10,359 nt of DNA. It comes from a virus (Duplodnaviria > Heunggongvirae > Uroviricota > Caudoviricetes). The position numbers were made by a program, and so were the translations under genes. The notes beneath the pieces were generated by a model. That model made no database searches, was not told the origin of the DNA, and saw nothing but the letters and a program-made list of their open reading frames with translations. The stretch is from IMG/VR virus record IMGVR_UViG_3300000357_000164. The stretch is one strand, 5' to 3'. Below, in pieces: positions 3,616 through 7,404 of this stretch (the first letter of the stretch is position 1; each line of letters opens with the position of its first letter).

Positions 3616-5745
3616 TCATGCCGCGATGTCCGCGTTGTTCACTTCCACCTTCACACTGTCAATCAGCAGCGTATATGTCGCCGCCTTTGATATGCCTGTC
3701 AGTTGCAGTTTGTCCGCCGCCCCTGATGCCGGAGATTTCACCAGTGTGAACGGCGTCCCCCGTTTCTCATCCAGTACCGGCGTCACCTGAATGCTGTTGT
3801 TTCCGGCAAACTCAAAAGCCAGTGTGTGCCATCCGTTATCAAAGACCCCGAACGTTTCCAGCTTCGCATTCGGCTTCTTGTGGTGCATCGCGTTCAGGTT
3901 CGTCGCATCCGTCTGCAGAAAGAAGGACATCAGCATGTCGTTGCCTTCCTCTGCCAGCGTCACTCCCTCNNNNNNNNNNNNNNNNNNNNNNNNNNNNNNN
4001 NNNNNNNNNNNNNNNNNNNNNNNNNNNNNNNNNNNNNNNNNNNNNNNNNNNNNNNNNNNNNNAACTGCCAGTAAATGCCCAGGGCAAACTGATTCGGCAC
4101 CAGTGAACCCGGCAACTTAAACCGTACGCTCACACGTCCCCCCTTCTTCAGTAACTCCACTCCCTGTCCGGCTGCATCATGCTCCAGAAACCAGATGTGG
4201 TTTTCCGGTTTATTCAGTTGCAGGGCCTTACCTCCCGTAGCCCCCGCATCACTGACCACCGCTTCAGCAATGTTTTTGTTAACATTGTCTCCGCTCGCCG
4301 GTTTGTGATAATAGCGCCAGCCCTGTGATGCCAGGTCTTCGCCGGACGCCAGCAGACTCATCAGGGTTCGGTTACTGACCGGGGCTTCCGGCTCTCTCTC
4401 CGTACCTTCACCGGAAGGTCCGGTGGGCTTCACCGTATCAGGCTGTTTTCCGGTAATGAATTCAGCGTTTCTCCCGGCATGCACAAGAATCGCCGTTGCC
4501 AGACGGTCGGAAATAATCCCACGACGTGCCCATGATCCAAAATGCGTTTTACGGTCAGCCGTCGTCCAGGTTTTGGCGTCCGTTCGACCACCGGCTCCGT
4601 AATACCCAATATCCGCAACATCCGGATCTTCTGACGGCTCGTTGGTACCCACATTTCGCCCGTTTTCATCCGTCATAAACGGCACAAAGAAGNNNNNNNN
4701 NNNNNNNNNNNNNNNNNNNNNNNNNNNNNNNNNNNNNNNNNNNNNNNNNNNNNNNNNNNNNNNNNNNNNNNNNNNNNNNNNNNNNNNNNNNTGCGGATTT
4801 CGTCTTGTATGCACCATACACCGCATCGTATTGCGAAGAATAAGTCTGCTTCCAGTAGTAGGTCGTGTCGCCACAAATCCAGGGAACCGATGACGGAGAG
4901 CCCCCGAGACACTGACCTCCGAATTCCGACAGGTCAGAACGATATTTTTCCACCATGGAATCAAACAGCCCCGGCTGGGTGGCGTATGCACCCTGTTTCA
5001 AATCAAACTCGCCCTGCATCCAGACCACTGCAAGCAGAATATTTTTAGGGTTGGCCTTCAGTGCGGCCTGAGTACGGGTAAGCAGGTCCTTGTACAGTGG
5101 CTTATCTACACCCCAGCGTGCCGAGGTCTCGCTTGCGCCGGTGGATTCGCTGAAGGTACCTTCATCGCCCGCCAAAAATGCAGAACCACCACGGCAGCAC
5201 GGAACCAGAAGAATACCGGCATTCGCCGGAATAAACGGCAACAATTTCTTCGCGATATGTAATCCCTGCCCCACGCATCCATACTGAGCTGCACTGGCTT
5301 TCGGGTGTGAAAACTTACTCAAATCCTGAACATCATGCAGGCAGTGGTCCGCAGGAATAATGTCATTGTAGTTACAGAACGCACCACCCGGCGTGACAGT
5401 GCTGCGACGCGCCAGCTGTTTAATACGCGGGTCCGGACGGTCATATGTCTCCGGCAGCGGAAGCCCTTCACCATACGCCATACCGTTTGACTGCCCGGCC
5501 AGGGCAACAACAAAGTAATACTCCGGGTTGCTGGTGGTGCTGATAACTGCGCCTTCTCCATCCGACGGCTTCACCACCACAGGTGTGGTGACATCACCTT
5601 CCGCCGCAATGGCCTGCATCAGGGTATAAGGCGTGATGGCCACCGGACTGCCAAATGGCTGCCACCCCTCCTTCAGTTTTTGTGTCAGTCGTTTCGCAAG
5701 GTCTGACGGCGATGCCGCCCTGACAACATCATAGTGTTTAAATGC
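3616..5745 (-). CDS. nanS-p: NanS-p-type phage sialate 9-O-acetylesterase (SASA/DUF303 esterase domain with C-terminal lectin-like region), interrupted by masked blocks
   Basis: Large minus-strand coding region with the SASA esterase GQSN motif (VALAGQSNGMAYGEG) and surrounding similarity to prophage NanS-p/YjhS-like esterases as recalled. The N-terminal part (AFKHYDVVRAASPSDLAKRLTQKLKEGWQPFGSPVA) resembles the DUF1737 region. The start lies inside N block 5746-5849. The coding frame differs on each side of N blocks 4693-4791 and 3970-4062 (three track ORFs: 4666..5964, 3960..4991, 3616..3963). Stop TGA at 3616-3618. Confidence 0.8.
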
Positions 5746-6017
5746 NNNNNNNNNNNNNNNNNNNNNNNNNNNNNNNNNNNNNNNNNNNNNNNNNNNNNNN
5801 NNNNNNNNNNNNNNNNNNNNNNNNNNNNNNNNNNNNNNNNNNNNNNNNNATTCTTTAAAATACCTGACATGTAATACAGAAAAAACACAAAACCATACCT
5901 TAAATAAAAACCTCATCATCAAGCAGATATGCATGGATAAACTACAAGACGAGATATAAACCACCCTGCATTTAAATAAACAATAAACAACATCAGAAAA
6001 ATAATTCTGCTCTATGG

Positions 6018-6044: not shown

Positions 6045-6084
6045 TTTCAGAACATCACCAGCAAGACATAAACAAGGAAACTAA

Positions 6085-6245
6085 ATGAAGTGGATTGTGA
6101 TTGATACAGTTATCCAGCCATCATGCGGAATATCTTTTTCAGTCATATGGAGTAAAATAAAATTAATAATCTGGTATCAATCGGATGCTTTCTTACCTCC
6201 TGAAAGTATATTTACACTGACTCACACAGGTATCATGCTCAATAA
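6085..6245 (+). CDS. small hypothetical protein on the strand opposite the late operon (partial; runs into masked block)
   Basis: ATG at 6085 with SD AAGGA (6074-6078, 6-nt spacer). Translation [53 protein letters not shown]... continues into N block 6246-6336; the track ORF ends at 6348. AT-rich codon usage with 5 ATA codons in 53. Confidence 0.4.
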
Positions 6246-6475
6246 NNNNNNNNNNNNNNNNNNNNNNNNNNNNNNNNNNNNNNNNNNNNNNNNNNNNNNN
6301 NNNNNNNNNNNNNNNNNNNNNNNNNNNNNNNNNNNNTGCTACCTGTAACCATTTACAACGTAGCACCATTCAATAAAACATTCTGGAATTTAATCAAAAA
6401 CAGCCAGGAATGTCCTACAAATACAGATAACGTATTGAATGAATGCTTTAATAACCGTTGCACTCTGCAAATATG

Positions 6476-6509
6476 TCCTTATGGACTAAAACAACAAAGT
6501 CCATAAGGA
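6476..6509. repeat. perfect 12-bp inverted repeat with 10-nt spacer (hairpin or palindromic binding site)
   Basis: TCCTTATGGACT (6476-6487) and AGTCCATAAGGA (6498-6509) are exact reverse complements; spacer AAAACAACAA. No clean U-tract follows on either strand. Confidence 0.6.
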
Positions 6510-6521
6510 GTTTACTCACAT

Positions 6522-6562
6522 CTGACAAAATCAATATAAACAGCCCCTCCGGAGAGGGGCTG
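6522..6562 (-). terminator. rho-independent terminator for minus-strand transcription
   Basis: Perfect 9-bp GC-rich stem CAGCCCCTC (6541-6549) / GAGGGGCTG (6554-6562) with a 4-nt loop. On the minus strand the hairpin is followed by TTTATATTGATTTTG (complement of 6522-6540). Confidence 0.55.
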
Positions 6563-6883
6563 GAGAGTGGCGCTATGTGCCATTGCATGGTGCCGGGTGC
6601 CTCCCGGTGAATTCAGTACCAGCACCTGAATCCGCGATTATCCCATATACCTACTCGCTGATTGCCCCTCCGCACNNNNNNNNNNNNNNNNNNNNNNNNN
6701 NNNNNNNNNNNNNNNNNNNNNNNNNNNNNNNNNNNNNNNNNNNNNNNNNNNNNNNNNNNNNNNNNNNNNNNNNNNNNNNNNNNNNNNNNNNNNNNNNNNN
6801 NNNNNNNNCCCCGCAAACCAGACAACAGTCAACCGCCTGAATTGTGAAGTATTTAAAAATTTCTCCCGCTAACTGATACCCGG

Positions 6884-7050: not shown

Positions 7051-7404
7051 CTACCCCAGATGAGTAATCCGAAGTTCATCCATACCACAGGTACTGGCTA
7101 TTCTGTTGTACTCCTGAACAAGAGCAAATAATTCTGAATTAGCAACCATGAACTCATCGCAAACCCTCTGTATAGCATCACTATTCAGAATAATAACGTC
7201 TCTTCCCGAAAGACGATCAGGAGTACAGAACAAAACTGTCAAACGGCTGAAGGCCTTTGCTCGTCCTGCATTGACTATATCAATACGCTGCCTAAGGATG
7301 AAACACCCCGACGCCTCATCAATATTCACTCTACCCACACCATATGAATGATAAATATTTAATGCTGAAAAAACCATTAGACCGTATAACAAACACTCAA
7401 TCAA
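7051..7404 (-). CDS. hypothetical ORF (117 aa) in cargo island; possibly a gene remnant
   Basis: The track ORF starts at TTG 7404; the first in-frame ATG is at 7377. No convincing SD for either start. Translation ...GRVNIDEASGCFILRQRIDIVNAGRAKAFSRLTVLFCTPDRLSGRDVIILNSDAIQRVCDEFMVANSELFALVQEYNRIASTCG... matches nothing I recognise. Confidence 0.3.
   Translation of the reverse strand: MIECLLYGLMVFSALNIYHSYGVGRVNIDEASGCFILRQRIDIVNAGRAKAFSRLTVLFCTPDRLSGRDVIILNSDAIQRVCDEFMVANSELFALVQEYNRIASTCGMDELRITHLG

Follow-up and report, generated by a model that had tools for sequence, protein, structure and literature searches.

The locus analyzed here raises the question of what a perfect 12-bp inverted repeat is doing in the late region of a lambdoid prophage. 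In the original prediction, this repeat was placed in a zone where cargo genes converge, next to a GC-rich terminator, and two roles were offered for it: a binding site for a dimeric protein (operator), or an RNA hairpin involved in processing or stability. In this work we looked at the whole stretch of 10,359 nucleotides (hereafter, the window), at an unmasked twin of it and at related alleles and prophage loci. This comparison makes the palindrome look like an RNA hairpin of an ordinary kind, specific to one allele, which lies where a known gene stops coding and beside the terminator of a known sRNA. The analysis is of value mainly as a correction: the repeat that was placed between cargo genes is the last part of the coding sequence of iraL, which is known to modulate the RpoS stress response.

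The coding end of iraL

The window is interrupted by runs of N that do not keep the length of the real sequence, and therefore the ORF calls and reading frames across these runs are unreliable. As a reference we used a 100%-identical twin from E. coli MCJCHV-1 (L001). In this twin, the 91 N of positions 6246–6336 correspond to 5 nt inside iraL and the 133 N of positions 6676–6808 correspond to 36 nt inside STnc100. It is because of these interruptions that the coding location of the palindrome is hidden in the window. In the unmasked reading, the ATG at 6085 starts a gene of 111 codons on the plus strand, whose TAA (6504–6506) falls in the right arm of the repeat. The palindrome occupies the last ten codons of this gene, its stop codon and 3 nt beyond, and is not intergenic (Table 1).

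Several comparisons bear on the identity of the gene. RefSeq annotates the 100%-identical locus with a CDS named anti-adapter protein IraM, which ends at the same right-arm TAA. The translated protein scores 162.4 bits against NCBIfam NF007393 (cut-off 121) and is 63% identical to K-12 IraM over 107 residues. Judged by these matches, the host gene of the palindrome is the known gene iraL, predicted to encode a full-length IraM-family protein. IraL was reported to stabilise RpoS in growing cells by blocking RssB (PMC4045071). The start of the iraL mRNA was mapped by 5'-RACE in CFT073 as ACATCACCAGCAAG[G/A]CATAAACAAGGAAAC... (PMC4045071), and this start site corresponds to about position 6052 in the window. 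A literature search for 3'-end or regulatory data on iraL beyond the 2014 paper found nothing relevant.

iraL is prophage cargo in the late region of a lambdoid prophage; it lies on the strand opposite to the late genes and is carried as a self-transcribed cargo gene (moron). Along the minus strand, from right to left, come the Q antiterminator, tRNA-Ile, tRNA-Arg and a DUF3927 gene, then (past iraL on the opposite strand) a NanS-like esterase, holin, lysozyme and spanin. The slot of iraL in this prophage is the slot held by stx in Stx phages. In some Stx2 phages, stx2B and STnc100 are directly followed by an IraM/IraL-type gene on the opposite strand (iraL-type with 77% protein identity in L093–L095; iraM-type in L090, 2916–3239), and therefore an RpoS-stabilising gene can travel beside toxin genes. 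Two further observations concern the neighbouring reading frames. The esterase gene (NanS-like; DUF1737/SASA/DUF6645), which lies downstream of iraL on the late strand (3960–5964, minus strand; L001 4114–6074), is annotated as frameshifted in the twin. Between the DUF3927 gene and tRNA-Arg there is an ORF of 117 codons with a TTG start (7051–7404, minus strand), which has no RefSeq annotation and no match in Pfam or NCBIfam, and which may not be a gene.

Table 1. Features around the palindrome, in window coordinates.
Feature	Position	Strand	Remarks
iraL 5' leader	6052–6084	+	33 nt; matches the CFT073 5'-RACE start except for 2 SNPs
iraL CDS, predicted IraM-family RssB anti-adaptor, 111 aa	6085–6506	+	broken in the window by the N-run 6246–6336; PMC4045071
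Outer imperfect arm CAAATATG	6468–6475		6 of 8 pairs with 6517–6524; both A·C mismatches are G·U pairs in the minus-strand RNA
Left arm TCCTTATGGACT	6476–6487	+	third base of Cys codon, Pro-Tyr-Gly, first two bases of Leu codon; conserved IraM-family C-terminus ...ICPYGLK
Loop AAAACAACAA, 10 nt	6488–6497	+	end of Leu codon, then Lys-Gln-Gln
Right arm AGTCCATAAGGA	6498–6509	+	Ser-Pro-stop (TAA 6504–6506) and 3 untranslated nt
Outer imperfect arm CACATCTG	6517–6524		separated from the right arm by 7 nt, GTTTACT
GC-rich terminator hairpin, 9-bp stem, 4-nt loop	6541–6562	-	terminal stem of the STnc100 model; then UUUAUAUUG at 6540–6532
STnc100-family sRNA gene (RF02076)	6532–6818	-	mapped from L001 6696–6885; partly masked by the N-run 6676–6808

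The repeat, its predicted fold and the neighbouring sRNA

The geometry described in the original prediction was confirmed: TCCTTATGGACT-N10-AGTCCATAAGGA is an exact inverted repeat (6476–6509), with arms that are complementary at 12 of 12 positions and a spacer of 10 nt. Within the window it is the sole perfect inverted repeat of at least 12 bp (spacer 3–30), and only 12 of 1000 dinucleotide-preserving shuffles (~1%) yielded a perfect repeat of that length. The calculated RNA fold energy is -17.5 kcal/mol on the plus strand (z -6.3 versus shuffles) and -17.8 kcal/mol on the minus strand (z -5.1), far better than the shuffles in both cases. The stem is AU-rich, with 5 G·C pairs among its 12 bp. 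It was also correctly noticed that no U-tract follows it on either strand; the plus strand continues with GUUUACUC, which has 4 U in 8 with three of them consecutive, and the minus strand with CAUAUUUG, again with 4 U in 8. A canonical intrinsic terminator, namely a G+C-rich stem with a loop of 3–8 nt and a U-tract (at least 5 U in 8), was considered for either strand and rejected, and the consensus terminator scan lists the palindrome on neither of them. In an Rfam search of the unmasked region (E<=1) the palindrome matched no known RNA family; the only match was STnc100, ending 23 nt away.

The strong minus-strand terminator that was seen about 30 nt from the palindrome is real. It is detected by the consensus terminator scan, its 9-bp GC stem (6541–6562) lies 31 nt from the right arm, and the minus-strand tail after the stem is TTTATATTGA. 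Its assignment to the cargo genes has to be revised. In the unmasked twin, the STnc100 family (RF02076) is matched over model positions 1–206 with 132.4 bits (gathering score 47), and in this match the GC hairpin takes the place of the model's terminal stem, with UUUAUA after it. The supposed cargo terminator is, according to this match, the terminator of the convergent sRNA gene STnc100. Rfam reported no STnc100 match on the window itself, where the middle of the gene is masked. STnc100 is a known prophage sRNA and was reported downstream of stx2B or the stx2 operon in Stx2 phages (PMC12370729; bioRxiv 10.64898/2026.05.13.724894).

The idea of a convergence zone stands in one part: STnc100 converges on iraL, with its 3' end about 23 nt from the palindrome. 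The part that placed the palindrome between genes does not stand, as shown above by its location in iraL. On the plus strand no U-tract follows the STnc100 hairpin, and iraL is therefore left without a canonical plus-strand terminator downstream. A further structure was seen when the folded region was extended. On the minus-strand RNA (6455–6540), directly after the STnc100 U-tail, the palindrome together with the outer arms, G·U pairs and a 7-nt bulge is predicted to fold with -29.4 kcal/mol, versus -20.4 kcal/mol for the extended structure on the plus strand. A weaker version of the minus-strand structure is predicted in a diverged allele whose protein is 88% identical, and none in an allele of 77% identity.

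Variation among alleles and origin of the perfect repeat

The 67-nt segment that holds the palindrome is common: it is carried by 1375 of 5426 complete E. coli genomes (about a quarter), including ST131 strains, and 994 of the 1375 match it with at least 99% identity over the aligned stretch. We surveyed the forms of the repeat in an unselected sample of 120 contigs from IMG/VR that encode an IraL-type C-terminus. The perfect form (12/12) was found in 49% of them and a form with one G·U pair, due to the synonymous change GGA>GGG, in 29%. A further 18% combine this G·U with an uncompensated mismatch (post-stop GGA>GCA, or AGT>AAT), 4% belong to the more distant L092 type with 7 of 12 pairs, and in 1% one position is mismatched, at the stem base. 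The perfect and the G·U forms add up to about 78% of the alleles, a share that leaves room for some constraint on the pairing of the stem. Uncompensated mismatches are found in about 19% of the close alleles, and no compensatory double changes were seen in the 120 contigs.

More distant relatives were also compared. The two diverged IraL-type alleles, L092 (protein 88% identical) and L093 (77%, adjoining stx2), both have the neighbours seen in the window, with the esterase gene on one side and the GC-rich hairpin on the other. L092 keeps 7 of 12 pairs (z -0.6) and L093 keeps 9 of 12 (z -0.8), and both fold no better than shuffles; the pairing is not one that was kept in evolution. In phage Stx2_EH2201, an IraM-type allele ends with CPYGRK and a stop codon 21 nt from the same STnc100 hairpin, without the palindrome. 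The original prediction had proposed to judge a binding-site role by whether relatives that retain the flanking genes also retain the palindrome, and in these relatives it is degraded or absent, which argues against a conserved role of this kind.

The 3' ends of 13 IraM-family homologues were folded, and the main iraL allele (z -5.8) is the only unusual one among them; the other 3' ends (K-12, Shigella, E. albertii, Citrobacter and others) are unremarkable, with z between -1.9 and +0.5. A stop-codon hairpin conserved across the IraM family was rejected on this count of one unusual fold in 13. On these comparisons, the perfect repeat appears to be specific to one allele. Weaker stem-loops across the stop codon were seen in K-12 iraM and in a Citrobacter homologue. 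In K-12 iraM (L002 2181–2210, minus strand) the 3' end has GCCCATATGGGC, a self-complementary 12-mer from the Cys-Pro-Tyr-Gly codons, and in addition a second ATGGGC just past the stop; together they give a weaker stem-loop in another pairing register than that of iraL.

Another question is how the repeat became perfect. The Pro-Tyr-Gly codons (CCN-TAY-GGN) are nearly self-complementary and a TCCATA motif a few bases past the Lys codon is common to the IraM-family members, with the TAYGGA...TCCATA core kept; the weak quasi-palindrome is therefore old. IraL-type and IraM-type genes differ by TAA/CAA at the old stop, and this difference adds four codons that end in a TAA within the TCCATA motif. 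The right arm of the palindrome belongs to this four-codon QQSP extension, which separates the IraL-type from the IraM-type proteins. For the polarity of the remaining changes we relied on L092 and L093, together with IraM-type outgroups lacking the extension, so that three IraL-type alleles are compared in all. Specific to the lineage of the perfect allele are TAC>TAT in the left arm and the post-stop TT/TA>GG at two adjacent bases. Each of these creates a Watson-Crick pair, and all three derived changes are therefore pair-forming. Intermediate alleles with TAC in the Tyr codon were sought in IMG/VR, and only the L092 type was found.

Clustered changes that raise pairing are a signature of quasi-palindrome correction by template switching (PMC7202029, PMC5941160), and it was proposed that such correction explains why E. 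coli has more short perfect inverted repeats than expected (PMC5941160). The pattern at this locus is of the same kind, with an imperfect repeat in the relatives and derived changes that are clustered and all raise complementarity. Most likely, the perfect repeat arose from the old quasi-palindrome by template-switch correction, possibly helped by weak selection. Selection on the RNA stem would produce the same substitution pattern, and any selection for the stem is probably weak, because uncompensated mismatches accumulated later. The locus offers a neat natural case of a quasi-palindrome of old date that turned perfect within coding sequence.

We also considered whether the right arm was a pre-existing part of the phage backbone, and set this aside, as two loci that hold only the right arm or its core do not settle the origin. 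One is in E. coli FCI23 (L216 2485–2534), where IS1 abuts the hairpin loop; only the right arm and the sequence downstream are left, and iraL and the lysis genes are replaced or deleted. The other is phage PhiR5_1 (L091 1860–1925), a phage without iraL in which 3 nt separate the STnc100 hairpin from GTCCATAAG, the right-arm core. This core is directly preceded by a strong plus-strand terminator (GCCCGCG...CGCGGGC, then T7), at which an unannotated plus-strand segment ends. The segment gave no Rfam match; possibly it is one more small transcript of the cargo type, and a remnant of a recombination event at the palindrome.

Possible functions and comparison with known systems

The explanation that we favor, with moderate confidence, is that the palindrome is a hairpin at the coding end of iraL, an old quasi-palindrome that was made perfect, which is dispensable and is neither an operator nor a canonical intrinsic terminator. 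According to this explanation, an ancestral weak quasi-palindrome between the Tyr-Gly codons (TAYGGA) and the downstream TCCATA would have been turned, by three derived and pair-forming substitutions, into the perfect 12-bp repeat in the lineage of this allele. Transcription of iraL would then produce a stem-loop of -17.5 kcal/mol at the coding end, about 23 nt before the 3' end of STnc100. At most, this stem-loop may hinder 3'-exonucleases modestly on the iraL mRNA, or cause a pause or a weak stop. Of the two roles first offered, the operator is not supported, and an RNA hairpin in the 3'-terminal part of the iraL message, as a candidate pause or 3'-exonuclease barrier, is the most plausible reading. 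The hairpin is stable, and its place is given relative to the coding end. If the hairpin affected the stability of iraL mRNA, then perfect, G·U and broken-stem alleles could add to the differences in RpoS levels between strains.

Could the hairpin have been selected as a functional 3' element of the iraL mRNA? It might serve as a non-canonical terminator or attenuator that halts or slows plus-strand transcription before it runs antisense into STnc100, and the translated left arm could tie read-through to the spacing between ribosome and polymerase. We regard this as a tentative and rather unlikely option. It would suit a hairpin that spans the stop codon of a cargo gene with its own promoter and without a canonical terminator downstream, as well as the derived substitutions that are all pair-forming, and the commonest SNP (GGA>GGG) keeps a G·U pair in the plus-strand RNA only. 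The weaker stop-spanning stem-loops of K-12 iraM and the Citrobacter homologue point in the same direction. Against it, the stem is AU-rich, the loop has 10 nt and only three U stand behind the stem, so that the terminator scan does not list it. The pairing is also not kept in the diverged alleles and in the IraM-type alleles at the same place, and the close alleles have accumulated uncompensated mismatches with no compensatory double change. A translation-sensitive switch is very unlikely: here, lagging ribosomes would allow the hairpin to halt or trim the iraL transcripts, whilst tight coupling would keep the left arm occupied and allow antisense transcription through STnc100. If such a switch existed, production of an RpoS-stabilising anti-adaptor would be linked to the level of a prophage sRNA.

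The palindrome can also be read from the other strand. In transcripts that read through STnc100, or in the late transcript antiterminated by Q, it would form a long stem-loop with the outer arms, and this stem-loop would be a second, back-up terminator, or a site of processing, between STnc100 and the esterase and lysis genes. We consider this improbable. The greater stability of the G·U-extended stem on the minus strand, the outer stem predicted in the 88% allele too and the 4 U in the 8 nt of CAUAUUUG are consistent with it. However, the commonest SNP, GGA>GGG, turns into a C·A mismatch on this strand and costs about 5 kcal/mol, and no such structure is present in the 77% allele or in iraL-less prophages that keep STnc100 and the esterase gene. 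Moreover, one of the outer arms is coding sequence, whose conservation is explained by the protein. Least of all do we expect an operator, to which a dimeric protein would bind through the dyad symmetry. This symmetry is perfect and statistically unusual, and the half-site centres are 22 bp apart, about two helical turns. But the site belongs to coding sequence. It is 424 window positions downstream of the CFT073-mapped iraL start, which correspond to ~340 nt once the padded N-run in between is discounted, and its real distance to the STnc100 5' end (about 6818) is roughly 210 nt; because of this placement no promoter is within operator reach, and no promoter-like site was found within 300 nt. 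The search for other copies of the half-sites, allowing at most one mismatch, found none in the window or in 1.5 Mb of related prophage loci. SNPs break the symmetry in about half of the alleles, and the repeat is lost in relatives with the same neighbours.

The favored reading, a dispensable hairpin at the coding end of iraL, can be placed beside several known systems. Stem-loops at the 3' ends of E. coli mRNAs, for example REP, block 3'-exonucleases. The iraL hairpin resembles these stabilising elements in its stability, in its place at the end of a short, single-gene message and in lacking a U-tract. It differs from them in being half coding, with the stop codon in its stem, in being present in a single copy and in not being conserved among alleles, and its position is defined relative to the coding end only. 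The quasi-palindromes studied in the Lovett laboratory (the E. coli thyA hotspot and lacZ reporters; PMC7202029) share with this locus an imperfect repeat in relatives and clustered changes that raise complementarity to perfect. Here the mutational event is deduced from three alleles and outgroups, with stem selection giving the same pattern.

The neighbour of the palindrome, which is not part of it, compares closely with STnc100 of Stx phages: the terminal stem with its U-tail and the position relative to the late genes are the same, and the difference is that STnc100 follows the DUF3927 gene here and stx2B in the Stx phages. The gene itself is closest to K-12 iraM and CFT073 iraL (PMC4045071), as it encodes a full-length IraM-family protein and has the leader sequence published for iraL. 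K-12 iraM ends with CPYGLK and a stop codon, and about 65 nt further on there is a canonical terminator that looks bidirectional. In iraL, by contrast, there are four extra codons, QQSP, and it is these codons that create the right arm of the palindrome.
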